Assembly: GCA_964629805.1 (NCBI GenBank)
Contig: CAZVTW010000002.1
Coordinates: forward strand, 1-45,373
Direction: 5' to 3'
Source of the DNA: an uncultured Bacteroidales bacterium
GTDB lineage: Bacteria > Bacteroidota > Bacteroidia > Bacteroidales > CAZVTW01
DNA length: 45,373 nt
Position 1 is the stretch's first letter. Each line of letters opens with the position of its first letter. Below the pieces are notes generated by a model, which worked only from the letters and a program-made list of their open reading frames with translations, did no database searches and was not told where the DNA came from. Shown in pieces: positions 5,381 through 44,924 of the stretch. Position numbers and translations under genes: made by a program.

Positions 5381-8300
5381 TTATCGCACAATAAGGGTTT
5401 TTACAGCCCGCTTGTTATTGACAAGTATTTCAACAGAATAACAACCTGCTTCAAGGTCAGAAACATCAATTTCATGAAGGAATGTGCTGTTTGTTTTTTC
5501 AGTCCGGATAATGAGATTCTCTTTACCCAGGATATTCCTCACGTAGATTTTGAGTTTACCATAGACTTTGTTATTCAGGGAAACATACAACTTATCTTCA
5601 GCGGGAACAGGATATAAACTTAAGGATGCTGATAAATCCGGCAAGTCAATAGCAGTAATTGTGTAATCTGCTGTTGCTATTGAACTCGGCGTCATATCCT
5701 CAGCATAGGCCTTCGCCTTTATTGTTGTGGTTTGGTTAACAGATATTGCTCCTGAATATTCATTTGATGATTCATCAGGATCAGTTCCGTCAGTTGTATA
5801 ATAAATTGTTGCACCTTCAGTGTCGCAAGTTATTTCAACTGATTGAGCATCCTCATAAGTACCCTCTGCCAGACTAAAAACAGGAGTAGTAACCACATCA
5901 GGCGCTCCTTCTTTGGCCAGGGAGTATATACCATTAGCTATACCACTCACTGTGAATACAATTCTGCCGTCATTCAGACCAGGTTCAGCATCAAGGTTCA
6001 CAGCGCCTGAACCGTCATCGTATTTTAATACATACCCTTCTGCCGCGCTTGGTGAACTCAGGCCAACAGCTTCAAAGTCAAAGAAAAATTTAACATCAGC
6101 AGCATCGCCGGTAGTTTCAATGTTCCATTTTCTTTCCCAGTTATCGGCTGATGATACACTTGCACCATTATGACCGGCAAATACAAAAGCTTCCTCGGCA
6201 AGCGTCAGACCCTGCATCTCAAGGCCGCCACCAGAGCTATAATTATGTTCAACAATTGTTGAATTATCCAAATCTTTTGTTTTTCCGACACCAATTAAAT
6301 CATGGATATAGGAATCATCAGTATAAAGATTTGTTGTATTTGCGCCATCAGTCAATTCGAGACCATATTTAGCAGCAAGATAATTGTTTATAATCGTTGT
6401 CTGAGCATGGTTCACAGGTGAATTGAAAGATAAAACTTCAGCAATATTCATGGCCTGGAAACCTCCGACTATTACAGGCGCATGGGAATTATTTAATACA
6501 TCAGAAAATGCAGCAGAGTTTTCAACTAATCCGTTAGTCATAAATGATGCGAGTTCAGTGTTTCCATTGACCGCGGCATTAACAATATAATAATCTTCAG
6601 TATTTATAATTTGATCATTTTGAAGGAAAAGCTTTTTATTGAATACCACCTGCATTTCATTTGGGTTACTACCGCCATTCATCTCCAGGGTGTAGGCCTC
6701 CTGGCTTTTATCTGCGGAAATATCGCGTTTTTGTAAAATAGCGGCAAAATCCCCAAACATTTCATTACGTTTAAAGACAATGAACAGAGATATGCTTGAC
6801 GAACCATCAAGATTATCAGCATCATCCACAATCAATGAACCTTTTTCTCCTTCTGTTGCTCCGAATTCAAGGACAGGTTTCCCGTTCAGCGCGTTTTCCC
6901 TGAAAACAGGTGCTGGTTTTTCTTTTTCACCTGTGTTTTCAATTTTGTTGTCACCACCTTCTTCATACGTATTGTAAGCAACATTTTCATTTCCTGACAT
7001 ATCCGGCCAGGTTGTAATTTCATCACCCTCACTTGCAGACAGGCCTTCAGGTTTAAGCCAAAGTGCCATTTCAGGTTGTCCGACTCGGGTTAAGTCTTTA
7101 TATCCAACACCACCGGGACCTACACCAGGATCAAGATTAGTCGGAATGATATCATATGAAGCTTCAATGATTTCAGTGGAAAAAGTGAAATCTGCACTAT
7201 ATGCCTGTGCTTTAATTACTGCATCATCATCAAGGAAAATTGGCCCCTGATAAATAGTTGTCGGTTCTGAACCATCAGTTGAATAGCGAATAACAGCATC
7301 TTCCGGAACAACAGAAATCGTTACAGTAACAGAATCAGGATATTTCACAACAGGTGAGGGAGATAATTCCGGTTTCCCAACAGGTGTAACATTAAACACA
7401 TGCGAAACAACGGAACTGGGTTTCAAATCAGGCGCATATGCGATAACTGAAAGCACGGTGGTATCAGTTAATGTAATCGGGCCTGTGTATTCAGTAGAAT
7501 TATCATCCGGTATTGAACCGTCAGTTGTGTAATAGACAGTAGAGTTCGATGTCAGGGATGTGACTTCCACTTCTGCTTCTTTAATAAAACTGCCACCTGC
7601 AGGCAATACAATCGGGGTTTGAACCTGTGGCTCGTAATTGAGCAACAATGAACTACCTCTCCATTCTTTACCTGAGAACCAGGCACGCTTGCCATCCTGG
7701 TTATTCTTACCTTTTGCTACCAGGGTAACACATGTATCCCCGTTCTCAATTGCCTCGTTAATGAATTCAGTGAATTCAGGAGAACCAAGGTTATACCATT
7801 TTCCGCCCTGTACGAGTGTTCCCTCCAGCAGAACGTTATTCCCCGGATTGATTTTATTATTCCATGTAATAGCATCCTCCTGCCAGTCACAATTTGCTGT
7901 TCCAAAAAACAGGAATTCAAACCTTTGAAGATTATTCGAATTATGAATTGAGCCATATGCCTTTAGTTCGGCAGAAACAACTTCACCATAAGCATCACTG
8001 ATATCATACATAAAATAATTCCATTTTGACCCGTTAGTCTCATCTTTAATAAGATGCTGGTCTGCTTCGCCACCAAAATTAGAATCTTTTTCCCCTTCGA
8101 CCTCAGACACATATGCATCTGCAATACTTGGCATTTGCTGTATTGGAGGCTCAACAGTATAATCCAGGATTAACCTGGCCCCGTTTTTCCAGTCTTTACC
8201 TGCCATCCATAGCCTGTCTCCCGGAGTGTTGTCCTTGCCTTTAATTGTAAATGCAATTGAATCTTTACCTGCTTTAATAGCATCATTAACATAATGCGTA

Positions 8301-10825
8301 AAATCAGAGCTTGTCCACTTGGTATCTTTCCCTGAATTGAACCAGTCTACATCTGCTTCAAGCAATTTTGAACCTGTCTCAGGTTTTGTATTCCATGTCA
8401 CATCATATTCCTGCCATGATACATCATCCACAGCATAAACCACTGCTAAAAATTCATCTCTTTCAGTACCACTGTTGTGTTGTGCAATGTATATAGCAAG
8501 CTTTGCGGACCCGACAACAGCATCACTCAGTTCACTGATATCAAACTTAAGGAGTACTTCTTTATTGGTATTGTTATCATTATCTTTTCTGATTTTCATG
8601 TCTGCTGCTGATCCGAAATTATCATCCGGTGATTCCTCATCAACAAATGCATCGGCAATGTTAGTGAGAGTATCGTTCTGCACAGGCTGAGCAAACTCCA
8701 GTTCAAGTTTAGGACCCCATGATCCGTTTGCTTTACCTCCAATCCATTTGAGCTGATCGCCGGCTCCATCTTTATATTCAAGTCCGAAAGCAACCTCAGT
8801 TGCTCCCGTTGCAATTTGCTCATTAATGTAATCCGTTAGATTTGAACCAACAGAAGTAAATATTTTTGGAGAGGAGTCCATATCATATATTGCTGTCGCC
8901 AGTTCTCCTGATGAAGATGGTTTATTATTCCAGGTGGTTGTATCTCTGCTGAAATCTGTTCCGGCTTTTGTGAGTTTAACAGTCATGGTTTGATCATCCT
9001 GCATATCAGACCGGGTTGAAAACTGGGCAACAGAGACTTCCTGACCGGTAAGGTTATTTAAAGGAAATTTCATATAAGAAATGACAGTAGAATCCGTTGC
9101 TTCCCCGACAAAAATGTTTTTACTGTCCAGGAGATTTGCTGTTGCATCAGGAACAGCTTCGAAAACTGTCGCATCATTAGATGGGTATACCGAATAACTA
9201 TTTGAGAACGTTAGATTTAACATTGGTCCCCAGGAACCGTTGCCTTTTCCTCCAATCCATTTTAACTGGTCTCCGGCGCCGTCTTTATAGGCTAATCCAA
9301 ATGCCAGTTCGGTCTCTCCGGCAATCAATTTTTCATTTATGTAGTCAACTAATTTATTGTCAACAGGAACAAAAGTTTTTGGAGCAGAATTCATGTCATA
9401 AATAGCAGTTGCTAACTCACCTGAAGATGATGGTTTATTTGCCCAGATTGTTGTATCTCTCTGGAAACCCGGGTCTGCTTTGGTAAGTTTCACAGTCATG
9501 GTTTGGTCGTCCTGCATATCCGAGCGGGTAGAAAAATCGGCCTTCTCTACAACTTTGCCGGCCAATGCACTAATGTCAAATTTCACATACGAAATCACTG
9601 TTGAGTCTGTTGCCTCTCCGACAAAAATATTGTTTGCATCTTTTTCATTGGCTGTTGCATCCGGCATCGCTTCGAAAACAGTAGCATCAGAAGTTGGCAC
9701 CATGTTTAGGCTTGGATTACCTGCTCCAAACTCCATTTCAAGTAGCGGTCCCCAAGTGCCGTTTCCGACTCCGCCGGCCCACTTGAACATATCACCATCA
9801 CCTGATTTGAATTCAATTGCAAAAGCCAGATCATCTTTTCCAAGTAATAATTGTTCGTTTACATAATCACTCAGGGCTGTTCCTAAAGGTGTAAAATATT
9901 TTCTTGCAGAATTTTCATCATATACTGCCGTTGCTAATTCCCCTGAAGAAGACGGTTTGTTGTTCCAGGTTGTTGTATCTCTTGAAAAACCGTTATCTGC
10001 TTTTGTCAGTTTCACTGTCATGGTAGTCCCATCCTGCATATCAGAACGTGTTGAAAAATCAACTTTATTAACAAACTGCCCGGAGATACTGCTGATGTCA
10101 AATTTCACATATGCAATAACCGTAGAATCTGATGCTTTCCCTACGAAAATATTATTAGCATCTTGAACATTAGCTGTTGCATCCGGTATTGCTTCAAAAA
10201 CTGTTGCGTCATCAATACCATAGGAACTATATTTTCCGTTAAAGGTAATATCCAGGTTTGGCCCCCAGGAAGCGCCGTTTGCTTTTCCGCCAATCCATTT
10301 TAATTGATCACCATCACCAGCTTTATACTCAAGGCCAAAAGCAATTTCATCAGCCCCGGCAGCCAGCTTTTCATTAATATAATCTACCAGATTACCATCA
10401 ACCCCGGCAAACTCTTTCCGGGTTGACTCTTCATCATAAACCACTGTTGCCAGTTCTCCTTTTGATGATGGTTTGTTATTCCAGGTCGTTGTATCCCTGG
10501 AAAAACCAGTACCACCTTTTGTGAGTTTCACAGTCATTGTTTTACCATCCTGCATATCTGAACGTGTTGAGAAGACAGCAGATTCCACAACCCTTCCGGT
10601 AAATTTGCTGATATCAAATTTAATGAAAGATATAACGGCTGAATCAGTCGCTTCACCGACAAAAATATTTGCATCGTTCAGAAAATTTGCCGTCTCATCA
10701 GGCATTGTTTCAAATACCGTAGCATCATCTGTTGGTAACAGTTGTAAGGTTTGTGCCATGGTATAATTGCCCGTCATAAATAAAATGAGGGCTGGAAAAA
10801 TAAAATAAAGGTTAAGCTTTTTCAT
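5381..10825 (-). CDS. Giant T9SS-sorted surface protein. Six DNRLRE-like (disaggregatase-related beta-sandwich) modules, three chitobiase/hexosaminidase-C-like modules, a LamG/ConA-like module and a type-A T9SS C-terminal domain. No recognisable catalytic domain.
   Basis: Signal peptide MKKLNLYFIFPALILFMTGNYTMAQ. Modules carry D(A)xVFE..PD..AN ... (I/V)KFDIS ... TxWNNKP. Further motifs: VYYTTDGSIPDD, IRYSTDGSEP, IYYTTDGTDPDE. LamG-like segment: WPDMSGNENVAYN...NGKPVLEFG. C-terminus: LSLYPVPAEDKLYVSL...LEAGCYSVEILVNNKRAVKTLIVR. Confidence 0.85.
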   Translation of the reverse strand: MKKLNLYFIFPALILFMTGNYTMAQTLQLLPTDDATVFETMPDETANFLNDANIFVGEATDSAVISFIKFDISKFTGRVVESAVFSTRSDMQDGKTMTVKLTKGGTGFSRDTTTWNNKPSSKGELATVVYDEESTRKEFAGVDGNLVDYINEKLAAGADEIAFGLEYKAGDGDQLKWIGGKANGASWGPNLDITFNGKYSSYGIDDATVFEAIPDATANVQDANNIFVGKASDSTVIAYVKFDISSISGQFVNKVDFSTRSDMQDGTTMTVKLTKADNGFSRDTTTWNNKPSSSGELATAVYDENSARKYFTPLGTALSDYVNEQLLLGKDDLAFAIEFKSGDGDMFKWAGGVGNGTWGPLLEMEFGAGNPSLNMVPTSDATVFEAMPDATANEKDANNIFVGEATDSTVISYVKFDISALAGKVVEKADFSTRSDMQDDQTMTVKLTKADPGFQRDTTIWANKPSSSGELATAIYDMNSAPKTFVPVDNKLVDYINEKLIAGETELAFGLAYKDGAGDQLKWIGGKGNGSWGPMLNLTFSNSYSVYPSNDATVFEAVPDATANLLDSKNIFVGEATDSTVISYMKFPLNNLTGQEVSVAQFSTRSDMQDDQTMTVKLTKAGTDFSRDTTTWNNKPSSSGELATAIYDMDSSPKIFTSVGSNLTDYINEQIATGATEVAFGLEYKDGAGDQLKWIGGKANGSWGPKLELEFAQPVQNDTLTNIADAFVDEESPDDNFGSAADMKIRKDNDNNTNKEVLLKFDISELSDAVVGSAKLAIYIAQHNSGTERDEFLAVVYAVDDVSWQEYDVTWNTKPETGSKLLEADVDWFNSGKDTKWTSSDFTHYVNDAIKAGKDSIAFTIKGKDNTPGDRLWMAGKDWKNGARLILDYTVEPPIQQMPSIADAYVSEVEGEKDSNFGGEADQHLIKDETNGSKWNYFMYDISDAYGEVVSAELKAYGSIHNSNNLQRFEFLFFGTANCDWQEDAITWNNKINPGNNVLLEGTLVQGGKWYNLGSPEFTEFINEAIENGDTCVTLVAKGKNNQDGKRAWFSGKEWRGSSLLLNYEPQVQTPIVLPAGGSFIKEAEVEVTSLTSNSTVYYTTDGSIPDDNSTEYTGPITLTDTTVLSVIAYAPDLKPSSVVSHVFNVTPVGKPELSPSPVVKYPDSVTVTISVVPEDAVIRYSTDGSEPTTIYQGPIFLDDDAVIKAQAYSADFTFSTEIIEASYDIIPTNLDPGVGPGGVGYKDLTRVGQPEMALWLKPEGLSASEGDEITTWPDMSGNENVAYNTYEEGGDNKIENTGEKEKPAPVFRENALNGKPVLEFGATEGEKGSLIVDDADNLDGSSSISLFIVFKRNEMFGDFAAILQKRDISADKSQEAYTLEMNGGSNPNEMQVVFNKKLFLQNDQIINTEDYYIVNAAVNGNTELASFMTNGLVENSAAFSDVLNNSHAPVIVGGFQAMNIAEVLSFNSPVNHAQTTIINNYLAAKYGLELTDGANTTNLYTDDSYIHDLIGVGKTKDLDNSTIVEHNYSSGGGLEMQGLTLAEEAFVFAGHNGASVSSADNWERKWNIETTGDAADVKFFFDFEAVGLSSPSAAEGYVLKYDDGSGAVNLDAEPGLNDGRIVFTVSGIANGIYSLAKEGAPDVVTTPVFSLAEGTYEDAQSVEITCDTEGATIYYTTDGTDPDESSNEYSGAISVNQTTTIKAKAYAEDMTPSSIATADYTITAIDLPDLSASLSLYPVPAEDKLYVSLNNKVYGKLKIYVRNILGKENLIIRTEKTNSTFLHEIDVSDLEAGCYSVEILVNNKRAVKTLIVR
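8657..10729 (-). repeat. Four tandem in-frame repeats (516, 522, 513, 522 bp: 10214-10729, 9692-10213, 9179-9691, 8657-9178), each encoding one 171-174-aa module
   Basis: Counted from the translation (aa 33-204, 205-378, 379-549, 550-723). Confirmed by antisense shadow ORFs that both start MLFQVVVSLEKP at 9957 and 10473 (offset 516). Confidence 0.9.
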
Positions 10826-29090: not shown

Positions 29091-31127
29091 TTATTCTTTA
29101 AAAACAGGCAAATATCCTGAATAATCAACGCAATATACATTCTCGTTTTCATCCCGGAGTTGCAGCACAGAATTATTCAAACTGAAGGCCGGGCCTGAAT
29201 AGACCGGCCAGTGTTTTTGCAAATTAACCGTTTTCCCGTTCACTGCCCATGTTGCCAGGCGCTCATGGCCTTTTCCTGACGGCCATTCAGGTTGTTGAAA
29301 CGGCGGAACAGACTGTATGAGTTGGGGAGTCTCCGGGCCATATCCCCAGTCATAAAGAGGTTCGGTAAAACTGCCGGAAATTCCGTAGGTCGCTTCAATT
29401 ACATCTCCTGAGACAGATTGATACACTATTGAATGTTCATTTTTTAATGCTGTAAGGTCTAATGAGGATTTCTTCATGACAGAATCAATAAAATGTTGAA
29501 AATTTCCAAAATTCCCGCTGTCTCCTGTCTCCATTACAATTCCGGCTGTGAGACCCGGCGGTGCAAAGTCCATTATAAGATTCCCTTCTAATTGAGGAAC
29601 GGAATTGAATGAACGAATAGCAAGAAAAGACTTTTCAAGCTCTACAAAAAGCATTTTATCTTTCAACTTTATATTTCGTGGTGTATGAATAAACAAATAA
29701 CATCCGTTTCCTTTTTTGCTTGTATTCCCCGATTCCATAAATTTCACCGGATACAGATGCTTATTTCTGATTTTCTCATCATCACGCCCGTAACGTTTAA
29801 TAAAATCTCTCTTCCAGCGTTGAGCCCATACTTTAATGGTATCTTCTATCTGTTCGTAGATTTCACCGGCATTTTTTGGCATGTTATTCATCTGGATAAG
29901 CACATTTTTGTGCTGAACAGTCTGTAACCATGGATTTCTTACTTTTCCCTGCCTGTCCGGGTAAAAAGTACCCCCACCTGTGACCAAATCCGGATTTTTA
30001 CCCTGCCCGGAATCAACCCTTGATACCAGTTTCCATGTTACGTTTTTATAAGCAGCGGTTGTGAATGCTCCATAAGGATAATAAGCTGTTCCCAGGGTAA
30101 AGTTATGACTGATATAAAAATGCTGTTTGATGTATGACGCTTTAGCCAGCAGATACGATGGCTTGCTGTTTTTGTAAAAAGCCGGAACATGAATACGTTT
30201 CATTGCCAGAGGGCGTGCAATTTCCGGTGGCCGGTAATTACTTGTAGCAGCATGCACAACCTGCAAGGGATGCTTGTTTTTTTTGTCATTGAAAAAATTT
30301 TTATCTATGGGTTTAGGAGAATCGTTGTACCAGAGCCATGCCAGGTAATCGGTTTCCGTATGACAGGCTTTGGTTGTTGGCGCTCCCCTGGATTCAGAGC
30401 CACCGGTCATTCCCTGTGTGTAGTGAAGGGCAATTTCAACAGCGTAGTAATCAAGCACAGCCTTGGCCATCAGTCGCACTTCATTATCATCAGCAAAATC
30501 AAACAGATTTAACCATCCAATGATGTTGAAAATCCCGTAAGTACCGGCATTAAATTCACCTGCACCAACTTCATAAATCCGTTTGGAATAATACCGGATC
30601 CATTTTTTCATCATCTGTTTAAATTGAAGTGCTTTGGGATACCTTTCAGGATATTTTTCCATGATTTGAGCAAAAATATACCCACTTGTCCTGCTCATGC
30701 TAATATGGTTTTCCGTGCCTTCACATGTCCATGGGTTATAACTGTCGTGCCTGTTGTATACGTTGTTCAGGTAATCAAACCGGTATTTTTCCATTTCAGG
30801 GGCATGGGGGAACAATGGCATTAACCTGGCCATGCCAACCAGGATAAAATGAAAGGGATTTCTCTCAACAAATTCATCAAGAGCAATATACGAGTTAGCT
30901 ACAGTGTCGTCAATGCCATATTTTTGTAGCCTGGCAATTGTTACAGGCCAGTAGACTTTTTCAGGATCCATATAATTTGGCCTGGGAACCTGGTAGATAT
31001 CAGCAGCAAAATTAATAATATATTCCGCCCGGGCATGGAAAGGCTTTTGTCCATAAAGGACGGGGTGAAAAATCATGGGAAATAAATACAGCAATAAGCA
31101 AAATATTGTTTTGTAAGGCATTGTCAT
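29091..31127 (-). CDS. Secreted 678-aa protein of unknown family, first gene of the operon. Possibly a helical N-half plus a beta-rich C-half.
   Basis: Signal peptide (MTMPYKTIFCLLLYLFPMIFHPVLYGQ). Long uninterrupted ORF, 2-nt gap to the next gene. I recognise no family motif. Notable segments: WTCEGTENHISMSR and EFNAGTYGIFN. Confidence 0.7.
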   Translation of the reverse strand: MTMPYKTIFCLLLYLFPMIFHPVLYGQKPFHARAEYIINFAADIYQVPRPNYMDPEKVYWPVTIARLQKYGIDDTVANSYIALDEFVERNPFHFILVGMARLMPLFPHAPEMEKYRFDYLNNVYNRHDSYNPWTCEGTENHISMSRTSGYIFAQIMEKYPERYPKALQFKQMMKKWIRYYSKRIYEVGAGEFNAGTYGIFNIIGWLNLFDFADDNEVRLMAKAVLDYYAVEIALHYTQGMTGGSESRGAPTTKACHTETDYLAWLWYNDSPKPIDKNFFNDKKNKHPLQVVHAATSNYRPPEIARPLAMKRIHVPAFYKNSKPSYLLAKASYIKQHFYISHNFTLGTAYYPYGAFTTAAYKNVTWKLVSRVDSGQGKNPDLVTGGGTFYPDRQGKVRNPWLQTVQHKNVLIQMNNMPKNAGEIYEQIEDTIKVWAQRWKRDFIKRYGRDDEKIRNKHLYPVKFMESGNTSKKGNGCYLFIHTPRNIKLKDKMLFVELEKSFLAIRSFNSVPQLEGNLIMDFAPPGLTAGIVMETGDSGNFGNFQHFIDSVMKKSSLDLTALKNEHSIVYQSVSGDVIEATYGISGSFTEPLYDWGYGPETPQLIQSVPPFQQPEWPSGKGHERLATWAVNGKTVNLQKHWPVYSGPAFSLNNSVLQLRDENENVYCVDYSGYLPVFKE

Positions 31128-35716: not shown

Positions 35717-37939
35717 CTAATTCGAAAAAGATATTTTTTGACGAAAATGTCCTACACTTATTTCGAAATCTCCCTTCTCAAGCACAGATTGGTTATTTTT
35801 ATCCGGGTATGATAAAACAAATTCCGGGGAAAAGGTAAATTCTATTGTCTTTTCCTCGCCTGGTTTTAAAAATATAATATCAACATGTTTCAGTAGTTTG
35901 ACCGGTCGTGTGATTCTTCCGTAACAATCGGATATAAACCACAGGGCGGTTTCTTTACCATTGAATTGGCCATTGTTTTTGATTGAAACTGATGCTGTAA
36001 TCGATTCCTCAAAAGTGCTTACAATTGTTTTATTTACACGAAAGTTTTTATATTCGAAATCATTATAAGATAAACCATGACCAAAGGGAAACAGCACATC
36101 ATATTGCTCCGAAGTTTTATGATAATAGTTGACATCATATCCCGAATATTTCGGATAAGAAAAACATAATTTTCCTGATGGACATTTTTTTCCCGTGATA
36201 ATATTCATAATGGCTTCAGCACCCCTAATGCCGGGATAGCCTGCAAAAAGCAAAGCATCAGTTTTTTCAGAAAATTCTGTAATGAGCCGTGGTCTGCCTT
36301 CAATCAGTATTACAACTATGGGTTTCGCGGATTCAATGGCCAGATACAATAACTTTTTATCACACTCCCTGAGTTCAAGGTCTGTAATGTTCCCCCTGAA
36401 TTCACTGTATGGCTCCTCTCCAACGGTCAGAACAATACAATCCGCCTCGTTTGCTGACTGCTCAAATCTCCTGGTGTATATCAAGCTACTGTCGTAAACT
36501 CCCATACAGGTGACATTATTTTTACCAAAAAAATCCCAGGCAACCTCAGCAAGCGTATTCATATTTTTGCTGTGTCGTTTATCCTCAGCTCCCATCCATT
36601 CATGAGTCCAGGCACCGTTGAGATTCTTCTTTGAATCTGTGGCAAATCCGGCTAAAAGTATTTTTTTATTTCTCTCGTTTAGCGGGAGTATACCATCATT
36701 TTTTAGCAGTACGATTGATCCCTCTGCAATCTGACGGGCAATATCAAGATATTCCTGACTGCCTATCCCCTGAATGTTTTTTTCTGAAGGATATGGATTG
36801 TCAAATAGTCCCAGTTCATGTTTTAAACGCAGTATTCTTCTGACCGACTCATTGATTCTTGCTTCGGTTATTTTTCCTTCTTCAATCAATTCCAACATAA
36901 TCCTGTTAAATTCAAAACCTTCGCAGGCCATATTGACATCAAAACCAGCATTGATTGCTAATAGTGTGGCCTCTTTCAAATTTTTTGCCCCGGCATGCAT
37001 TTCAACCACTTTTTGAATATCTTTTATGTCAGTGAGTAGCACCCCGTCAAAACCTAACTCTTTGCGCAAAATATCATTTAACAGCCAGTCTGAAGTATGA
37101 ACAGGTTCTCCGTTGACTTCTCCGCTATTAGCCATGATGGTTTTCACACCACTATCAATGGCTTTTTTAAATGGTGGGATAAAAAATTCAAAAAGCTTCT
37201 GTTGTGGAATTTCTGCAGGAGTCCTGTCCCATCCGGAGCGGGGGTCTGAATATCCCACAAAATGCTTTGCGCAGGCAGCCAGTTCGAAAGGCAACGTACT
37301 GTTACAATTCTGAGAACCATTGATAAATGCTGCGCCTAATTCACTGACGAGAAAAGGGTCCTCTCCGAATGTTTCGTAAAAGCGAGGCCAATATGGATTT
37401 CTTGCGAGGCCAAGAACCGGTGCGAAATTCCAGTTTATTCCCAAAACGGCTGTTTCTTTGGTTGTTATCTGAGCTGCTTTTTTCACAAGAGCCGTATCAA
37501 AACTACAACCAAGCAGGATATTATGCGGAAGTATTGTCCCCTCATCAATATAATTTGCGCCATGTATATGATCTATGCCTATGAGCAATGGGATACCCAG
37601 ACGTGTTTTTTTAACGGCAATTTGCTGCATAAGGGTGTTAAATTCGACCCAGTCATTAGCAGAGCCTGTTCCGCTCAAAAATGAACCAACATGATACTTC
37701 CGGATAGCATCAACAAACATGGAGGTATCAAGACTCAATTCCTTATTTTTTCCAAGTGTGATTTTGCTGAAACAGATTTGGGTCATTTGTCCGACTTTCT
37801 CCTCAATGGTCATCTGATTCATTAAACTATCAATAAAATTGCCGGATTTACTTGTACTGATTGTTTGATTACAGGAATTAAATCCTGTCATTAGCAATGT
37901 TAGTATTGCTCCTATTCCCCTTTTAAAAATTATACCCAT
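35717..37939 (-). CDS. GH3 family exo-glycosidase (beta-glucosidase / beta-xylosidase type) lipoprotein
   Basis: Lipobox LMTGFNSCNQ. MTIEEKVGQMTQ, GIPLLIGIDHIHGANY, KHFVGYS, GFDGVLLTDIKD (nucleophile Asp region), C-terminal Fn3-like domain. Confidence 0.9.
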   Translation of the reverse strand: MGIIFKRGIGAILTLLMTGFNSCNQTISTSKSGNFIDSLMNQMTIEEKVGQMTQICFSKITLGKNKELSLDTSMFVDAIRKYHVGSFLSGTGSANDWVEFNTLMQQIAVKKTRLGIPLLIGIDHIHGANYIDEGTILPHNILLGCSFDTALVKKAAQITTKETAVLGINWNFAPVLGLARNPYWPRFYETFGEDPFLVSELGAAFINGSQNCNSTLPFELAACAKHFVGYSDPRSGWDRTPAEIPQQKLFEFFIPPFKKAIDSGVKTIMANSGEVNGEPVHTSDWLLNDILRKELGFDGVLLTDIKDIQKVVEMHAGAKNLKEATLLAINAGFDVNMACEGFEFNRIMLELIEEGKITEARINESVRRILRLKHELGLFDNPYPSEKNIQGIGSQEYLDIARQIAEGSIVLLKNDGILPLNERNKKILLAGFATDSKKNLNGAWTHEWMGAEDKRHSKNMNTLAEVAWDFFGKNNVTCMGVYDSSLIYTRRFEQSANEADCIVLTVGEEPYSEFRGNITDLELRECDKKLLYLAIESAKPIVVILIEGRPRLITEFSEKTDALLFAGYPGIRGAEAIMNIITGKKCPSGKLCFSYPKYSGYDVNYYHKTSEQYDVLFPFGHGLSYNDFEYKNFRVNKTIVSTFEESITASVSIKNNGQFNGKETALWFISDCYGRITRPVKLLKHVDIIFLKPGEEKTIEFTFSPEFVLSYPDKNNQSVLEKGDFEISVGHFRQKISFSN

Positions 37940-38131: not shown

Positions 38132-40387
38132 CTATTTTTTCCTGAAACGGATATTTTTCTTTCCTGTAGCTTTTATGAATATTTCATTGGCATCGAGTAA
38201 TTTGTTTTCAAACCAGGGTTTTGTCAACTGGTATTCGCTTTCATCAATAAGTTTCAATGTAATATCATAGACAGAAGGATTGGATATTTGTATTTCAAAA
38301 GAATGAGGATCATCAGCAAGTATTTTTATGTCAACAAAATCAAATGCAAATACAAAATTTCTTTCAGGAATAACATAAACCCCTGGAATCTCAATATATG
38401 TTAACATCAGCGAAGTTTCACTAAAAGTAGAACCATACATAATTTCACCAATCCCCTCGAACCAGTCTGTCGTACTAACTCTTTCGGACATCCAGCCAAT
38501 ATCCATCCCTTCAATTGGCCTGTCAGGATGTGACATCATCTGTGGCATATGCCTGACAATATCTCTGAGCAGGTCCAGGTAAAAAATATGACCTGTTGCC
38601 CGGTATAGCCGCAAAAGGGCAACTCCTGAATGCGTGCAAATACCGGGAGCGCCATGTTTGTTTTGCGTATTCGCAAAAACAGTTCCGCGGGTCTTAATAT
38701 GAAGTTTGCCCAATAGGCTGTCTTCCGGAAATTCATAATTGTATGACATCACCCAGCTTGAAAACTGGACAGCCATCTCTTCTGCCATATTCAACCATTG
38801 TTTATCCTGTGTCTGCTCATATAAAACACAGAATGATTCGAGCATGGCATAAGCCGATTCACTGTCAGGATTTTGAAGTGCATCTCCTACTCCACCAGTT
38901 GTAAAACCTTTCCTAACAAAGTTTTCATAAAAATAAGCAGCAGAAGCTTTTGCCACATCCAAATATTTTTTTTCATCAAAATAAACAGAAGCGTAAACCA
39001 GAGCTGCCGGAGCCAGGGCTGCACTTGTTGAGCCTCCGACGGTAATCTCTCCGGAGATACTGTCTGTGTAATTCCCAAATTGCCCCCATGTTTCCCAGAC
39101 ATGGACGAAAGTATCAGCAACTTTTTTTGTTCCTGAAACCCAGTTTATCTCCGGTTTTTTCCCGTTTTTCTCCATGAGCCAAAATTGCTTGATGATATAA
39201 TACAGGGCATCAGCGCTTTTCCTGATAAGATGCCAGTTTTTTGTGTGAGCTTTTCTGATATCCCCGCCATACCAATATGTTTGGTTTTCATCTGACTCAG
39301 CACAATCGTAAAAAAAACCGGAAGGACTGATTCCACCTGAAAATAACCAGTCAAAATTTTTCAAAACACGATTTTTTGTATCCTGCTGTCCCTCAAAAAG
39401 AAGGGGATAAGTTGAGATCATGCCCCCTGTCCAGCCGATTTGCCAGTCCTGCAAAAATATCTCCCGCATACCCACGGCATAATACCCATGAGGTTCAACA
39501 AAGTTTTGCCTGTTAAATTTGCTCTCCTGGATGTAAAACAATGAGGAAACAGGAAAGACAACCGGAATATCTTCATATTTGACCATTACGTTTCTCAAAT
39601 CAATTAATTGCTTAAACAGTTCCTGCACTGAAGTGGTTGGGTAAGTGTAAATCCTTACTTTCAATGAAATGGTTTCTCCTGATTTCACATCCAAAGGGGT
39701 ATCATCAGAAGGGAATTGATTATCAGCGATATGGTATTTATATAATTCTCTCACCAAAGGCATTCCTACTGTGAAAATGGCCTGGCTTCTGTCCCTGTTT
39801 TCTATGATGTTATATCCGTAATCGCCATAATTGGTTGCCTGTTCAGTCAGTAGCCAGAAACTCCTTTTTTTCTCAGGATCAAAAAAACCAACAGCCGGAG
39901 TTGTCATGCTGCCTGAACGTTCCTGAATACTTGAAGGACCCTCGTGAATATTCAGTCGTGGAACATCTGAAATAATCAGTGGTTTGTTGGGACCAATGTC
40001 ACGGGAATCTAACAACTTTGGGGAATATGCAATCTTTCTTGATTCAAAACGATTGCCATTATATACTGCTCCGGGCATTAAAACATAGTGATCTTCTGAC
40101 CAGGCTGTCACATCAATATCAAGACAACAATTAATACTTTTTACCTGTCCGCTTATTAATTTAAAATCAACGATAATCTCAAAAAAACTATCCTGTAACT
40201 CTTTGATGTTGAATGCTATCTCCCATGCTCCGCCAAATGCGTTTAAGTTGATTTGATCAGTATCACTTCCGGGTCTGACCCGATATTGTTCTTTTATTTT
40301 GTTATAATAATCATAATCAAAGCGGTTTATTCTGAGGTGAGGTACACATTGATGTTTTTCCAGAAATTGCAGATGTTTACTTTCCAT
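38132..40387 (-). CDS. Cytoplasmic (signal-less) 751-aa protein of unknown family. Beta-rich N-half and a helical, possibly six-hairpin-like, C-half.
   Basis: N-terminus MESKHLQFLEKHQCVPHLRINRFDY has no hydrophobic leader. The C-half contains repeated amphipathic helices (AALAPAALVYASVYFDEKKYLDVAKASAAYFYENF, SAYAMLESFCVLYEQTQDKQWLNMAEEMAVQFSSW, GVALLRLYRATGHIFYLDLLRDIV). Divergent from kduI. Confidence 0.7.
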   Translation of the reverse strand: MESKHLQFLEKHQCVPHLRINRFDYDYYNKIKEQYRVRPGSDTDQINLNAFGGAWEIAFNIKELQDSFFEIIVDFKLISGQVKSINCCLDIDVTAWSEDHYVLMPGAVYNGNRFESRKIAYSPKLLDSRDIGPNKPLIISDVPRLNIHEGPSSIQERSGSMTTPAVGFFDPEKKRSFWLLTEQATNYGDYGYNIIENRDRSQAIFTVGMPLVRELYKYHIADNQFPSDDTPLDVKSGETISLKVRIYTYPTTSVQELFKQLIDLRNVMVKYEDIPVVFPVSSLFYIQESKFNRQNFVEPHGYYAVGMREIFLQDWQIGWTGGMISTYPLLFEGQQDTKNRVLKNFDWLFSGGISPSGFFYDCAESDENQTYWYGGDIRKAHTKNWHLIRKSADALYYIIKQFWLMEKNGKKPEINWVSGTKKVADTFVHVWETWGQFGNYTDSISGEITVGGSTSAALAPAALVYASVYFDEKKYLDVAKASAAYFYENFVRKGFTTGGVGDALQNPDSESAYAMLESFCVLYEQTQDKQWLNMAEEMAVQFSSWVMSYNYEFPEDSLLGKLHIKTRGTVFANTQNKHGAPGICTHSGVALLRLYRATGHIFYLDLLRDIVRHMPQMMSHPDRPIEGMDIGWMSERVSTTDWFEGIGEIMYGSTFSETSLMLTYIEIPGVYVIPERNFVFAFDFVDIKILADDPHSFEIQISNPSVYDITLKLIDESEYQLTKPWFENKLLDANEIFIKATGKKNIRFRKK

Positions 40388-40566
40388 GGTTATTATTCTT
40401 TTTGTAAATATTTTCTGTATAACAAAAGAATCATTATTAATCCCGCCTTATGTGTATATCTGTTTCATTATGCAGTGACATTTGTTTCTTTTTGAACCGG
40501 GGTGTTTAAAATTACTCATAATAGTACTAAATTCGCATTAAACAACCGGAAAAAAATATAGATATT

Positions 40567-41400
40567 ATGGAAATAAAAGAAGAAATACGGTATGCAAGTC
40601 ATCCAGGGGATGCAAAAAATTATGATACGACAAGAATACGGGAAGAATTTCTTGTTAAAGAATTGTTCGTAAAGAATGAAGTTAATCTGACCTATTCATT
40701 TGAAGACAGGATGATCATTGGCGGTCTTATGCCGGTTGAAAATCTCCTTGAGTTAAAACCTATGGATATTCAAAAGGCAGAATTTTTTCTGCAGCGTCGC
40801 GAAATGGGCATCATCAATGTTGGAGAGACAGGTAAAATAATCGCGGATGAACAGGAATACACCCTGAATTACAAAGATGCCCTGTATATAGGCAAAGGAA
40901 CAAAATCAATAAAATTCTTTAGTGAGGAACAGGATAAACCGGCAAAATTTTATATAAATTCAGCTCTAGCCCATACATCCTTTCCAAGCAAAAAAGTACC
41001 CCGAAAAAATGCTAATCCTGTTTATCTGGGTGACCAGGAGCATTCAAACAAAAGGGTGCTGAATCAGTATATTGTTCCCGGTATTGTTGATACCTGCCAG
41101 TTAATGCTTGGAATTACAAAGGTATATTCAGGAAACGTATGGAACACCATGCCTTGTCATTTACATCCATTAAGGATGGAGGCTTATTTTTATTTCGAAA
41201 TAGATGAAGGACAAGCTGTGATGCACCTGATGGGCAGACCTGATGAGACACGACATATATGGGTGCATAACGAGCAGGCTGTCATATCGCCATCCTGGTC
41301 AATACATTCTGCCAGCGGAACAGTTAACTATTCATTCATATGGGGAATGTCAGGTTCTGACAGTGATATGGATGGTGTTAGCATACAGGAATTAATGTAA
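40567..41400 (+). CDS. kduI: 5-dehydro-4-deoxy-D-glucuronate isomerase (4-deoxy-L-threo-5-hexosulose-uronate ketol-isomerase)
   Basis: Matches recalled E. coli KduI along its length: ...REEFLV..., DRMIIGG(L/I)MP, FFLQRREMGIINVG, AKFYINSALAHTSFPSKKV, WNTMPCHLHPLRMEAYFYF, ETRHIWVHNEQAVISPSWSIHS, FIWGM. Confidence 0.95.
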   Translation: MEIKEEIRYASHPGDAKNYDTTRIREEFLVKELFVKNEVNLTYSFEDRMIIGGLMPVENLLELKPMDIQKAEFFLQRREMGIINVGETGKIIADEQEYTLNYKDALYIGKGTKSIKFFSEEQDKPAKFYINSALAHTSFPSKKVPRKNANPVYLGDQEHSNKRVLNQYIVPGIVDTCQLMLGITKVYSGNVWNTMPCHLHPLRMEAYFYFEIDEGQAVMHLMGRPDETRHIWVHNEQAVISPSWSIHSASGTVNYSFIWGMSGSDSDMDGVSIQELM

Positions 41401-41419: not shown

Positions 41420-42649
41420 ATGGATAAAATACCTTTTGTTTACACAGAAGAAAACGATGGAACACCCGTTGATAAAAAGGAAACAGAAAATACAATCAGA
41501 CTGATAGCTGACAGAATACTTAAGAACACGAGTTATCAATTCATTGACAGAAACACAAATGCTACATACCGGGAAACTGATAATATGCCCGTTGCTGATA
41601 ACATCGTATTAGAAAGCGGATACAATGACTGGAAATACTGGAATGGCGTGATTCACCTGGCCATGATGCAAATCGGCCAAACATTCAGTGATCAGAAATA
41701 CATTGATTACGTCAGAGAAAATTACAGATTTGCCTTTAAACATCTCGATTATTTCAGAAAGCTCTATGATGAAGAAATATACAATGCAAATTTTCACCAG
41801 TTTTTTCGTTTAGACAGACTCGATGACTTTGGAGCAATGGCTTCCGGCCTGCTTGAAGTTTTAAAGTATGAATCAAATCCGCAGTATACTGATTACATTG
41901 AAAAAGTTGCAAATTATATCCTCAAAAAACAGGACAGACTTGAGGACGGCATTTTTTGCCGGAATCGTTTCGGAAAAACAACGCTATGGGCTGATGATCT
42001 GTATATGAGTGTTCCGTTTCTTGCCAGGATGTGGAAAAAAACCGGGAATGAAACATTTCTTAGAGATGCAGTCAACCAGGTAAAGCTTTTTAACGAACAC
42101 CTGTACAATGAAAAGAACGGTTTATTTTATCACTGCTGGTACAAAGAGCTTAACCAGCACGGTGTAGCTTTCTGGGGAAGGGCAAATGGCTGGGTCATCA
42201 TGGGACAAACCGAATTAATGAATTTTTTACCGGATGATCATCCTGATCGCGAAATGCTTTCTGAGCTATTATTCAGCCAGATAGTTGGCATATCAAGATA
42301 CCAGTCTGCCAATGGCCTCTGGCGTCAACTTCTTGATAAAACGGACTCTTTCCATGAAACGTCATCAACTGCAATGTTTGTATATGGCATAGCAAAAGCT
42401 GTGAATGAAGGCTGGATAGATGATATTTACTCATCCGTTGCCATAAATGGCTGGAAAAGGCTTGTCAAAAATGTGACCGGCAAAGGGGAATTATTGAATG
42501 TATCTACCGGATTTAATATCAGGCAGGATTTGCCTTATTATTATAACCGCCCTATAGAAAAAGGCGGGGACCATGGTGTTGGGGCACTTTTACTTGCAGG
42601 AACTGAAATCTATAAAATGAAAGAATATCGTAATTGCGTGTGGTGTTGA
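41420..42649 (+). CDS. GH105 unsaturated rhamnogalacturonyl/uronyl hydrolase (YteR/YesR-like, Glyco_hydro_88 fold), no signal peptide
   Basis: WKYWNGVIHLAMMQ, LWADDLYMSVPFLARMW, FWGRANGWVIMG, SSTAMFVYGIAKAV. N-terminus MDKIPFVYTEENDGTPVDKKE is hydrophilic. Confidence 0.9.
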   Translation: MDKIPFVYTEENDGTPVDKKETENTIRLIADRILKNTSYQFIDRNTNATYRETDNMPVADNIVLESGYNDWKYWNGVIHLAMMQIGQTFSDQKYIDYVRENYRFAFKHLDYFRKLYDEEIYNANFHQFFRLDRLDDFGAMASGLLEVLKYESNPQYTDYIEKVANYILKKQDRLEDGIFCRNRFGKTTLWADDLYMSVPFLARMWKKTGNETFLRDAVNQVKLFNEHLYNEKNGLFYHCWYKELNQHGVAFWGRANGWVIMGQTELMNFLPDDHPDREMLSELLFSQIVGISRYQSANGLWRQLLDKTDSFHETSSTAMFVYGIAKAVNEGWIDDIYSSVAINGWKRLVKNVTGKGELLNVSTGFNIRQDLPYYYNRPIEKGGDHGVGALLLAGTEIYKMKEYRNCVWC

Positions 42650-42731: not shown

Positions 42732-44924
42732 ATGTTTGGACTGAGTATCGTTGATCTAATTATCATTTTCGTCTATCTCCTTATCATTCTTCTTATTGCC
42801 TTCAGGGCAATGAATCGCATCAGGAATTCCGAAGATTATTTTCTGGGGGGACGTAAGTTTAATAAACTCGTGCAGATTTTTTCAGCCTTCGGGCAGGCAA
42901 CCTCAGCAGATACAGGCCCCTCAGTCTCTACGACAACAATGAAAAACGGAGCTGCAGGTATCTGGAGCGCTTTGATGATGCTTTTTGTGACCCCTGCTTA
43001 TTGGTTTACCAGCGTATGGTACAGAAGACTTCGGGTTTTGACAATGGGTGATTATTTTGCAGAACGGTTCAATTCAAAACTCATGGGCGGGGTGTATTCG
43101 GTTTTTGGAAGCATAAGCATGACGATTTTACTTACAGCCGGCTACATCAGTATCACCAAAACAGTCATGGTGATGACGCCAAAAGACAAAGCAGATTTTA
43201 CTCAGGAAGAAAAAATGGAATATCAAAATGCTACGCGACTGGATGAACTTGAAGCACTGGATTTTGCCAGTCTCACACCATCAGAAAAACAAGAAATGCA
43301 ACACCTCAGAGCACAGCAACCACGAAAAAATTTCTCTCATATCGACAAAAATATCTTTATCTGGATTATAGCTGTTGTTGTGATTATCTATGCCATCATC
43401 GGTGGCCTGGAAGCAGCATTTTACAGCGATGTACTCCAGGGATTCTTTATACTCATCCTTTCAGTTCTCCTGCTACCTTTTGCCCTCAACAGAATTAATC
43501 TAACATATGGCAGTGAAGGAGTTATAGGCGCATTCAGAACCATTCATGAACAACTACCCCAGTCATTTTTCGAGATATTCGGCTCCCCGTATACCATGGA
43601 TTTTACCTGGTATTATATTTTTGCCATCTCGCTGATTGCCATGTTCAATGTGATGGTTGGTCCTAATCAGCTTGTAGCCACAGGTTCGGCAAAAAATGAA
43701 TATACCGCCCGGTATGGATTTACTTTCGGCACCTATCTTAAACGTTTTGCCATTGTTTTATGGGGCATCACAGCTCTGGCCATTACATTGCTTTTTGCAG
43801 GGACAATTGAGGACCCGGATTTGCTATTCGGATATGCAGCTTATCATCTGCTTGGTTCTCTCAATATCGGTCTGATAGGCCTGATGATTGCTTCACTGGT
43901 GGCAGCACTGATGTCAACGGCAGATATGATGATGCTCACAACAGCTGGTTTGCTTACTCATAATGTTTACAAACCTTTTGTGAAAAACAGGAGCGAAAAA
44001 CATTATGTTACTGCCGGCCGTCTGCTCGGAGCTCTGGTTGTGATAGGTTCTGCACTCATGGTTATGAATATGGACAGCATACTCAATGCCCTAAAGGCAA
44101 ACTGGGAATTTAATGTTATTATCGCTGCCGGTTTTTGGATGGGCATTTTATGGCGCCGTACCAACAGAAAAGCGGTATGGACATCAATCATTGCTACATT
44201 CATCATGTTTTACCTTATCCCAATCTTACTTCCGCTGGTATCACCTTCCTTGCGATATAATGAAAAATATTTGCAGCGGACAGAAGAACAAATCATTAAA
44301 CGTGTTTACACAGCTCATCAAATGGACGTTGAGCAGCGCGAACATGATATTCGAAAATGGGAAGAAGCAAACAGAAATGGATTGGCAATTGGAAAAAAAC
44401 CAAAACCCATAAAGGCTGGAGAGAAATTCACAAAAAAATATCAGCAACCTCAGCGTTCCGTCTTTTGGACACAAGATGTGGGCTTCGACGAAGACGGACG
44501 AATGTATGGTAAAGGAAACCTGAAAATGAGCCTTGTTTTTTACAATGCGCTTGGCTTTGACCTGACAAAAAACAAACATGCCCTGAATGAAACCATTAAA
44601 GTTCTGACAAAACTGGTTTTCCCATTCCTGATTGTTATTATTATCAGCCTGCTGACAAGGCATTCCAGCGGAGAAGAAATAATCCTTAATGATTTCTACG
44701 CCAAAATGCGGACACCTGTCACAGGAGACAAGGAAAAAGATGAGCGTGAATTACAATTGTCTATGGAGAATCCGAAAAGATTTGATTACAAACTCATGTT
44801 TCCGAAAACACAATGGCAAATCTGTAAATGGAACAAAGTAGACACTAATGGTTTTCTTGTTGCCCTTGGCATGGTTGCGGCTATTCTAGGGTTATTGTAT
44901 TTCGCAGTGAATTTGGGAGGGTGA
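42732..44924 (+). CDS. Sodium:solute symporter (SSS) family transporter with two long hydrophilic insertions
   Basis: IVDLIIIFVYLLIILLIAFRA...SEDYFLGGRKF is the SSS N-terminal signature. Multiple TM segments throughout, with insertions at aa 151-207 and aa 508-622. Confidence 0.9.
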   Translation: MFGLSIVDLIIIFVYLLIILLIAFRAMNRIRNSEDYFLGGRKFNKLVQIFSAFGQATSADTGPSVSTTTMKNGAAGIWSALMMLFVTPAYWFTSVWYRRLRVLTMGDYFAERFNSKLMGGVYSVFGSISMTILLTAGYISITKTVMVMTPKDKADFTQEEKMEYQNATRLDELEALDFASLTPSEKQEMQHLRAQQPRKNFSHIDKNIFIWIIAVVVIIYAIIGGLEAAFYSDVLQGFFILILSVLLLPFALNRINLTYGSEGVIGAFRTIHEQLPQSFFEIFGSPYTMDFTWYYIFAISLIAMFNVMVGPNQLVATGSAKNEYTARYGFTFGTYLKRFAIVLWGITALAITLLFAGTIEDPDLLFGYAAYHLLGSLNIGLIGLMIASLVAALMSTADMMMLTTAGLLTHNVYKPFVKNRSEKHYVTAGRLLGALVVIGSALMVMNMDSILNALKANWEFNVIIAAGFWMGILWRRTNRKAVWTSIIATFIMFYLIPILLPLVSPSLRYNEKYLQRTEEQIIKRVYTAHQMDVEQREHDIRKWEEANRNGLAIGKKPKPIKAGEKFTKKYQQPQRSVFWTQDVGFDEDGRMYGKGNLKMSLVFYNALGFDLTKNKHALNETIKVLTKLVFPFLIVIIISLLTRHSSGEEIILNDFYAKMRTPVTGDKEKDERELQLSMENPKRFDYKLMFPKTQWQICKWNKVDTNGFLVALGMVAAILGLLYFAVNLGG

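Follow-up and report, generated by a model that had tools for sequence, protein, structure and literature searches.

Which step in the breakdown of an acidic glycan could be carried out by a large, unnamed protein encoded beside genes for the use of unsaturated uronates? This question is raised by a gene found through its open reading frame and translation at 38132-40387 on the minus strand of the window, a stretch of 45,373 nucleotides from an uncultured Bacteroidales bacterium that carries a polysaccharide utilisation locus (PUL). The gene encodes a leaderless protein of 751 aa, P0001, which belongs to an unnamed family of six-hairpin proteins. The first-pass annotation had proposed it as a candidate cytoplasmic enzyme acting on imported oligosaccharides.

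The gene and its neighbourhood

The ATG of the P0001 gene is the first start codon past the upstream in-frame stop, so a longer N-terminus is impossible. The N-terminus, MESKHLQFLEKHQ..., is hydrophilic and its highest 10-residue Kyte-Doolittle mean within the first 45 residues is 0.05. The same measure gives 2.3-3.6 for the other PUL proteins on the minus strand (GH3, HTCS, both unknowns, the GH42s, and both beta-helix proteins). All signal-peptide calls reported here, for the locus and across the family, come from this hydrophobicity heuristic and not from SignalP. By this heuristic, P0001 is the sole large minus-strand PUL protein without a signal peptide, as had been proposed. KduI (0.72) and the GH88/105 protein (0.97) are likewise leaderless.

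The P0001 gene and kduI are divergent and are separated by 179 nt (40388-40566), the length first noted for this region. When this region was aligned with its counterpart in locus L003, no common motif above chance was found beyond the coding ends. The three plus-strand neighbours had been named from the letters alone as kduI, GH105, and a symporter, and Pfam found all three. They are a KduI-family isomerase (40567-41400; PF04962, E 1e-23), a GH88/GH105-type unsaturated uronyl hydrolase of 409 aa (41420-42649; Glyco_hydro_88, PF07470, E 2.5e-78, a model that spans both GH88 and GH105), and a sodium:solute symporter family (SSF) transporter of 730 aa (42732-44924; PF00474). Downstream of the P0001 gene and on the same strand is a GH3 glycosidase with a signal peptide (35717-37939). 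This pairing is also present in the closest relatives, loci L001, L002, L003, and L064.

Another protein of the window bears on the source of the unsaturated uronates. A secreted 678-aa unknown (29091-31127, minus strand) has a model with a pLDDT of 92 and the toroid-plus-sandwich fold of uronate lyases. Its top Foldseek matches are all PL8/12/15/17/21/33/35-type lyases or dermatan-sulfate epimerase (best E 8e-8), and its E-N-H block is invariant. On the strength of its model, it is likely the periplasmic source of unsaturated oligosaccharides in the PUL. A separate lyase-fold protein is present in the window and also in its closest relatives.

Size and spread of the family

P0001 has more than 1000 homologues. 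Hundreds of these are full-length at 50-57% identity, and the gene is therefore real. The family forms at least 353 clusters at 50% identity with E <1e-30 and is found in Bacteroidota, Verrucomicrobiota, Acidobacteriota, and KSB1. Cultured species are among the homologues, for example Phaeodactylibacter xiamenensis (P0096). A signal peptide is predicted in about 70% of its members, which makes the leaderless, putatively cytoplasmic form a minority variant.

P0001 has no match in NCBIfam. When PDB chain sequences were searched with P0001 alone and with the family profiles A1 and A2, nothing significant was found, and the profiles gave no match at E up to 10. The literature was also searched for recently named PL or GH families that match the P0001 family, and none was found. 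The idea of a xanthan PUL, with its 'PL-only' and 'PL-CE' proteins of B. intestinalis, was set aside; without a sequence reference these proteins are not linkable to the family.

Longer fused forms were also searched for. In P0271, a 655-aa unknown is joined to a protein of the family; both halves have unassigned functions, so the fusion is uninformative on the function of P0001. In P0211, a CE15 glucuronoyl esterase is fused or run together with a protein of the family, beside GH10. A 346-aa ORF overlaps the end of P0211 and is presumed to be the remainder of the family protein. The CE15 'fusion' may be two or three adjacent genes merged by sequencing error, and it was counted as adjacency only.

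Predicted fold and conserved residues

The AlphaFold2 model of P0001 has a pLDDT of 85 and a pTM of 0.90. It contains both the beta-rich N-half and the six-hairpin C-half that had been proposed. By DSSP on the model, beta strands occupy residues 15-250, twelve barrel helices residues ~284-666, and further beta strands residues 670-750. The N-terminal beta-sandwich (residues about 15-250) corresponds to 39638-40345 on the minus strand. The (alpha/alpha)6 barrel, residues about 280-668, was delimited by the model helices, the alignments, and hhalign to GH127 (38384-39550). The model and alignment place a C-terminal beta-sandwich with invariant D683 and N703 at residues about 670-751 (38135-38380). 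Within the N-domain, a loop of residues about 105-160 (39908-40075) is very highly conserved in alignments A1 and A2; P105 and Y109 are invariant and N112 and R113 reach at least 95%. Its pLDDT in the model is 38-65. This loop probably closes over the barrel pocket.

Conservation was scored over 66 sequences at 27-51% identity. The conserved residues lie at the starts of the inner barrel helices: W319; R389 and D393; S453; D508-S509-E510 and E517; Q575-N576-H578 and C584; R596; and E635-R636 and D641-W642. Of the carboxylates, D508 and E635 occur in every sequence and D393, E510, E517, and D641 in at least 92%. The conserved carboxylates come paired, and the family therefore fits a glycosidase. 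The arginines R389 and R596 are likewise found in all sequences and R636 in at least 95%, and they fit an anionic substrate.

Remote relationship to GH127

The first-pass annotation had recognised no motif of a known family. This is not quite so, as P0001 has a borderline Pfam match to GH127 and the profiles of the two families align specifically. The Pfam score of P0001 is 25.8 bits for PF07944 (cut-off 24.9), across just 72 of the 376 positions of the model, and other members of the family reach about 16-18 bits, under the cut-off. With hhalign, the family aligns to eight GH127 sequences with a probability of 94.4% (E 8.5e-8, 167 columns, residues 460-642). A control alignment of the family (A2) to GH88/105 (A7) gives 2.4%. 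By these comparisons P0001 is a remote GH127 relative and not a clear member. The match spans part of the barrel only.

GH127 (DUF1680) enzymes are exo-glycosidases of plant-glycan loci. In the GH127 alignment (A6), E329, C331, C397, and C398 are invariant and make up the Glu-x-Cys and Cys-Cys zinc site, which includes the Cys nucleophile. The Glu of the 'ETC' motif is kept in the P0001 family as invariant E635. The Cys of this motif, which is the first zinc-binding one, is V637 in P0001 (V in 49, I in 11, and C in 3 of the 66 sequences). The Cys-Cys nucleophile segment lies beyond the alignable region, the GH127 acid/base Glu falls in a gap, and the conserved C584 of the P0001 family pairs with a Tyr of GH127. 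Thus, GH127 chemistry is not simply transferable to P0001. The P0001 family has instead its own conserved set of D508, E510, C584, R389, and R596.

Both families combine a six-hairpin barrel with accessory beta-sandwiches, and their order is reversed. In HypBA1 (GH127) the catalytic barrel comes first and the beta-sandwich domains follow. In the P0001 model a 235-residue beta-sandwich lies ahead of the barrel and one small sandwich lies behind it. HypBA1 (3wrg), a beta-L-arabinofuranosidase, is a weak structural match to P0001 (TMq 0.29).

Relation to PL27 and other six-hairpin enzymes

The top Foldseek match to the P0001 model is PL27 (5no8; E 7e-13, TM 0.40-0.45). VIA-align gives a Z of 21.8 over 463 residues and model residues 16-670, at an rmsd of 5.5; at a modest rmsd, 5no8 alone aligns over the N-domain as well as the barrel. 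PL27 is an L-rhamnose-alpha-1,4-D-glucuronate lyase (BACCELL_00875, PDB 5no8/5nok) built of an N-terminal beta-sandwich and then an (alpha/alpha)6 barrel (PMC8377490). The P0001 family shares this build and, like PL27, occurs with an unsaturated uronyl hydrolase of GH88/105 type. It differs from PL27 in its extra C-terminal sandwich and in an alternative GH67-like partner (below) that misfits a lyase product. No sequence similarity to PL27 was found at E up to 10 with profiles A1 and A2 against the PDB, including 5no8 and 5nok.

GH88 and GH105 enzymes have the six-hairpin barrel in common with P0001 (Z 16-19), occur in the same loci, and often hold the neighbouring gene position. However, they are without the flanking sandwich domains of the P0001 family, and P0001 has no match to PF07470. 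By sequence they appear as partners of the family rather than relatives. The top barrel-only matches are GH76 alpha-mannanases and AGE-superfamily isomerases and epimerases (Z 20-23, rmsd 3.1-3.9, about 300-350 residues). These match in the barrel alone and with no sequence signal, and a Z of 20-23 is common to many unrelated six-hairpin enzymes. On the model, this likeness is one of common fold and not evidence of common function.

Partner enzymes and location across loci

Neighbours of the family were scored in 74 loci with a partner window of five genes. A GH88/105 enzyme was found in 32 of them. In at least 10 lineages its gene usually lies directly before or after that of the P0001 family and points the same way. 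A new GH67-like protein was found in 17 of the 74. Either partner is present in 47 loci and both in 2; the 27 loci with neither include many on short contigs. Fifteen loci have the GH67-like enzyme as the only partner, with no GH88/105. This protein aligns to AguA (1k9e) over 230 collinear residues with an E of 0.006. The counterparts of AguA D364 and E392 are conserved, and a conserved Glu lies at most two positions from E285. The best reading is that the partner of the family follows the type of uronate, GH88/105 if it is unsaturated and the GH67-like enzyme if it is saturated. The family has other links to uronates, as the gene is divergent from kduI both here and in L003, and CE15 is adjacent beside GH10.

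In 48 of the 49 pairs, the family protein and its partner have the same predicted, hydrophobicity-based location. Leaderless members of the family adjoin inner-membrane transporters: an SSF transporter lies within three genes of 13 of the 21 leaderless members and of none of the 55 with a signal peptide. In locus L013, a leaderless GH88 of 414 aa, an SSF transporter, and the P0001 homologue are co-directional, with a 4-nt overlap. The link to a kduI-GH88/105-symporter module is seen again elsewhere, in L013, in L003, and in the SSF genes beside leaderless members. P0001 belongs to carbohydrate metabolism and is predicted to be cytoplasmic, as first proposed.

The enzyme that would cut the polymer is less constant. 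Lyase-fold neighbours were found in 10 loci with a GH88 partner, in 3 loci without a partner found, and in none of the 15 with only the GH67-like partner. Within the DNA fetched, no recognised lyase is present in 21 GH88-partner loci, and no classical PL Pfam family was found among about 200 neighbours. That the polymer-cutting enzyme varies while the P0001 family stays constant argues against the family being a lyase. It can also be argued from the alternation of the GH88/105 and GH67-like partners that P0001 is not itself the source of unsaturated uronate.

Possible role of P0001

The reading favoured here, to which we give an even chance, is that P0001 acts in the cytoplasm as an exo-type carbohydrate-active enzyme, from a family remotely related to GH127, and that it works in tandem with the removal of terminal uronates. 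The lyase-fold protein at 29091-31127 and other secreted enzymes would cut an acidic polysaccharide, and the SSF symporter would import the resulting unsaturated oligosaccharides. In the cytoplasm, the leaderless GH88/105 would take off the unsaturated uronate and KduI would isomerise it once released. P0001 would hydrolyse the sugar adjoining the uronate, which would be either the residue bared by uronate removal or a residue that needs prior removal. It is plausible, as was first suggested, that P0001 acts upstream of or alongside GH105. Should import be limited to unsaturated disaccharides, no obvious substrate would be left for another glycosidase in the cytoplasm. Against a hydrolase, the best whole-chain structural neighbour of P0001 is the lyase PL27.

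The similarity to PL27 allows another role, in which P0001 is an exo beta-eliminating lyase that removes the O4 substituent of a terminal glucuronate and leaves a 4,5-unsaturated uronate. The substituent would be a cap sugar (rhamnose, for example) or, conceivably, a 4-O-methyl group, and the product would pass to GH88/105 and then to KduI. This is rather unlikely, although the top Foldseek match takes in the N-domain as well as the barrel, no neighbour is commoner than GH88/105, and KduI lies alongside. In the 2017 PL27 paper, PL27 is reportedly followed by a GH105 step, which would make the two an established pair. The conserved arginines R389, R596, and R636 and the invariant Tyr109 might provide the neutralisers and the base. 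A lyase role is possible in some loci because 21 loci with a GH88 partner lack a further lyase-like gene within the DNA fetched and the neighbours include no classical PL family. Against it, the profiles carry no PL27 signal, sequence homology favours the hydrolase family GH127, a barrel Z of 20-23 is widely shared, and the window and closest relatives already hold a separate lyase-fold protein. In addition, the saturated uronate expected in the 15 loci with only a GH67-like partner does not follow from a lyase product. P0001 is therefore more likely a hydrolase than a lyase. A broader form of the lyase reading, that the whole family is a new polysaccharide-lyase family of GH127 ancestry and PL27-like build that eliminates a cap sugar or 4-O-methyl from O4 of terminal glucuronate, is improbable. 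The 4-O-methyl ether of glucuronate is common in xylans and arabinogalactan proteins. If true, P0001 would make the unsaturated uronate used by GH88/105 and KduI, and the lyase-less GH88/105 loci with GH10, CE15, GH43, GH42, GH30, and GH3 would be explained. These enzymes form a xylan- or arabinogalactan-type glycosidase setting. Rhamnose-catabolism genes have no prominence among the neighbours of the family, which thus point to no particular cap sugar.

P0001 could also be a uronidase for a saturated or unsaturated uronate linkage beyond that of the neighbouring GH88/105 or GH67-like enzyme. In favour are the conserved arginines, which could bind a carboxylate at subsite -1, and a barrel similar to those of GH105 and GH88 (4xuv, Z 19.2; 4ce7, Z 16.1; 3wiw, TMt 0.62). 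CE15 is also fused or adjacent beside GH10, and in Verrucomicrobiota the cytoplasmic partners (SSF, two GH43, and the GH67-like protein) are typical of aldouronate pathways. However, such a uronidase would repeat the work of a partner found in nearly every case. The two partners alternate almost exclusively, which suggests that the uronate step is theirs and not that of P0001, and the hhalign probability to GH88/105 is only the 2.4% of the control. We consider a uronidase somewhat more improbable still. Far down the scale is a non-cleaving isomerase or epimerase (AGE, cellobiose-2-epimerase, or YihS type) or a GH65/GH94-type phosphorylase. The barrel aligns to YihS, mannose isomerase, and cellobiose 2-epimerases with a Z of 20-21, the Foldseek matches include GH94 and GH65 phosphorylases with the N-sandwich-plus-barrel build, and D-lyxose-isomerase and mannitol-dehydrogenase genes follow in six Paludibacter-type loci. 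Secretion of about 70% of the family would be unusual for isomerases and phosphorylases. The candidates for the catalytic His pair of AGE enzymes are H386 in 19 and H578 in 58 of the 66 sequences, the GH94 and GH65 alignments have an rmsd of about 20, and no sequence signal links the family to AGE, GH65, or GH94.

Place of the family in acidic-glycan breakdown

The P0001 family is widespread in PULs, has no name, and is known from sequence and predicted structure. In acidic-glycan breakdown its position is fixed, next to the enzyme that takes off terminal uronates, and it could credibly found a new family of carbohydrate-degrading enzymes. Once its reaction is assigned, a gap in annotation that recurs in many PULs would be closed, and a new CAZy family would probably follow. 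Two companion families, no better characterised, also come to light: the GH67-like putative glucuronidase and the toroid-fold putative lyase. The matched sets of secreted and leaderless family members and partners, with the leaderless ones beside transporters, appear to be a clear natural case of the relocation of a pathway between periplasm and cytoplasm, as judged by hydrophobicity. The genome studied here also has a second leaderless copy of the family, which follows an MFS transporter.

The locus and the gene

The window contains a polysaccharide utilisation locus (PUL) of the Bacteroidota type, with SusC/SusD, GH29, three GH42-type genes, GH3, two beta-helix proteins and a hybrid two-component sensor (HTCS). 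A T9SS-secreted protein of 1814 aa (5381-10825, minus strand) carries six CBM96 and three chitobiase-C/Fn3-associated modules. The ORF at 38132-40387 (minus strand) encodes the 751-aa protein studied here, P0001, for which a longer N-terminus is impossible. The first-pass annotation had described this protein as the sole large minus-strand PUL protein without a signal peptide, lying across a 179-nt gap from a divergent operon of kduI, GH105 and a symporter. This description was right; Pfam places the hydrolase in GH88/105 (unsaturated uronyl hydrolases) and the symporter in the SSF family. At the N-terminus hydrophobicity peaks at 0.05, a hydrophilic value, whereas each other minus-strand PUL protein reaches 2.3-3.6. 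By hydrophobicity, KduI and the GH88/105 protein beyond the gap are leaderless too.

Family and predicted fold

P0001 has a borderline partial match to the GH127 catalytic domain in Pfam (residues 461-538; 25.8 bits, cut-off 24.9) and zero matches in NCBIfam. Searches of PDB sequences with the protein and its family gave no match. More than 1000 homologues are present in a 90%-clustered collection, every one labelled hypothetical. At 50% identity there are 1101 representatives, 353 of them below E 1e-30, and the taxa include Bacteroidota, Verrucomicrobiota, Acidobacteriota and KSB1.

An AlphaFold2 model made with 35 homologues as input (pLDDT 85, pTM 0.90) has a beta-sandwich (residues 15-250), an (alpha/alpha)6 barrel of twelve helices (about 284-666) and a small beta-sandwich (670-750). 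Many six-hairpin enzymes resemble the barrel to the same degree (Z 19-23; GH76, AGE-type isomerases and GH105), so this resemblance indicates the fold only. The PL27 rhamnose-glucuronate lyase structure 5no8 is the only solved chain that aligns with the N-domain and barrel jointly at modest rmsd (VIA-align Z 21.8, 463 residues, rmsd 5.5). It is also the best Foldseek match (E 7e-13).

Residues conserved among sequences of 27-51% identity are located where each inner barrel helix begins. W319, R389, D508, N576, R596 and E635 (P0001 numbering) are invariant. D393, S509, E510, Q575, C584 and R636 are at least 95% conserved, E517 and D641 92-94%, and H578 88%. A poorly modelled loop of the N-domain is also highly conserved, with Y109 invariant and N112 and R113 at 95% or more.

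A profile of 66 family sequences was compared with eight GH127 genes from the window's own genome and its relatives, in whose alignment the expected E-x-C and C-C motifs are invariant. The match had a probability of 94.4% (E 8.5e-8, 167 columns, residues 460-642). The control against seven GH88/105 sequences gave only 2.4%, so the GH127 signal is specific rather than one that any six-hairpin fold would produce. The Glu of the GH127 'ETC' motif corresponds to invariant E635. However, the Cys position of this motif is Val or Ile in the family, the Cys-Cys segment is without alignment, and GH127's acid/base Glu is opposite a gap. From these alignments, the family appears to be a GH127 relative with a differently built active site and not a GH127 member.

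The same genome (contig C49) encodes a secreted 699-aa distant relative (L099:2318-4417, about 22-23% identity, no Pfam match) that adjoins a GH95-like gene and a GH141-like beta-helix gene. By this sequence, the superfamily extends beyond the 750-aa clade.

Partner genes

Eighty loci carrying the family were fetched from species-representative genomes and 74 were scored with BLAST, HMMs and simple ORF calling, which was crude (ATG starts, longest non-overlapping ORFs). In 32 of the 74 loci GH88/105 is no more than five genes away, usually directly adjacent on the same strand, in either order; this arrangement is found in at least 10 lineages of the family tree. A GH67-like gene occurs within five genes in 17 loci, where it follows the P0001-type gene. 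One or the other partner is present in 47/74 and both are present in only two, so the two appear almost mutually exclusive; many locus contigs are short and neighbour absences are weak evidence.

The GH67-like proteins (530-585 aa; representative gene L036:4181-5929) have no Pfam match. Their remote match to the GH67 alpha-glucuronidase AguA (1k9e; E 0.006) spans 230 collinear residues. Of the AguA catalytic residues D364, E392 and E285, the first two have conserved counterparts, and the third has a conserved Glu at most two positions away. By sequence, this is a candidate new glucuronidase family. Further loci with such genes are L022, L029, L032, L038, L039, L041, L049, L059, L062, L067, L070 and L073. 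Secreted and leaderless forms exist, tracking the state of the P0001 homologue.

Most GH88/105 partners have about 605 aa, of which some 250 form an unassigned N-terminal extension (L008:12247-14073). Those of the Paludibacter type are about 990-1000 aa (L028:2607-5588), with two GH88 stretches matched by Pfam. The N-half of the partner in L042 (Chitinophagaceae) gives a weak GH26 signal.

Cellular location and transporters

Signal peptides, assigned by hydrophobicity, are present in about 70% of close homologues (83/118), and the family tree requires at least six changes of state. In 48 of 49 pairs the P0001 homologue and its partner (GH88/105 or GH67-like) share the same leader status. Of the leaderless members, 13/21 have an SSF transporter no more than three genes away, versus 0/55 of the secreted ones; these location and transporter counts are phylogenetically clustered and do not represent independent events. 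The pattern of leader, partner and transporter recurs in Bacteroidota and Verrucomicrobiota. In locus L013, leaderless GH88, SSF and P0001-type genes are co-directional with a 4-nt overlap.

Contig C141 of the window's own genome has a second leaderless copy (L098:8898-11106, minus strand, 45-56% identity). An MFS transporter gene (L098:11128-12405) directly precedes this copy, which breaks into two frames near residue 526, owing to either a frameshift or a misassembly.

Predicted function

Across the loci, the P0001-type protein is the constant element. The variable elements are polymer cutting, by a lyase or not, and, in step with it, whether GH88/105 or a GH67-like enzyme removes the terminal uronate. 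On the simplest reading, the family is an exo-enzyme for the residue next to the terminal uronate. It would most likely be a glycoside hydrolase, as its GH127 ancestry and its pairs of invariant carboxylates suggest, and the neighbouring carboxylate would be held by the conserved arginines. In the window, the symporter would import oligosaccharides, and P0001 would act on them in the cytoplasm beside the leaderless GH88/105 and KduI.

The family could instead be a lyase, which the structural match to PL27, the frequency of GH88/105 as partner and the lack of a recognised lyase within reach in many GH88 loci would favour. This appears rather unlikely.

The window also encodes a secreted 678-aa protein (29091-31127, minus strand; model pLDDT 92) of no Pfam family, modelled as an (alpha/alpha) toroid plus beta-sandwich. 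Its best structural matches are all uronate lyases (PL8/12/15/17/21/33/35) or dermatan-sulfate epimerase, and an E-N-H block is invariant. The model suggests a candidate new polysaccharide-lyase family, so a plausible source of unsaturated oligosaccharides is predicted to be present already. Such a gene also follows the P0001-type gene and GH3 in the closest relatives (L001, L002). Two lyase-fold families were scored, this one and another of 925 aa in which the heparinase-II/III signal is weak. They were found in 10 loci with a GH88 partner, three without a found partner and 0/15 with a GH67-like partner. Many homologues of the 678-aa protein have T9SS tails.

By the comparisons above, P0001 falls outside GH127, PL27 and GH88/105. 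Its family, GH127-related with a PL27-like build, would be new among six-hairpin carbohydrate-active enzymes, although a very recent CAZy family that Pfam does not yet model may coincide with it.

Other neighbours

Other recurrent neighbours are GH3, GH43, GH42, GH30, SASA and GDSL esterases, GH141-like beta-helix proteins and the CBM96 giant, homologues of which adjoin the family in six other loci. In six Paludibacter-type loci, a D-lyxose-isomerase-family cupin and a 399-aa mannitol-dehydrogenase-family gene (L044:13144-13812 and L048:4291-5490) directly follow the GH88 and P0001-type genes. The pair might be a non-orthologous replacement of KduI/KduD or serve a released neutral sugar. One metagenomic gene, with GH10 adjacent, joins a CE15 glucuronoyl esterase to the family and may be an assembly artefact. 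A 645-665-aa protein without a Pfam match is encoded upstream in L005, L009, L015 and L018, and one record (P0271, 1402 aa) has this type and the P0001 type in a single ORF. In Verrucomicrobiota, an 847-859-aa fusion of a Kelch/NanM-like (mutarotase-like) beta-propeller and an SSF symporter (L066:7428-9971 and ten other loci) lies immediately upstream of a leaderless P0001 homologue. Most of these loci continue with one or two leaderless GH43 genes, and several have a GH67-like gene.
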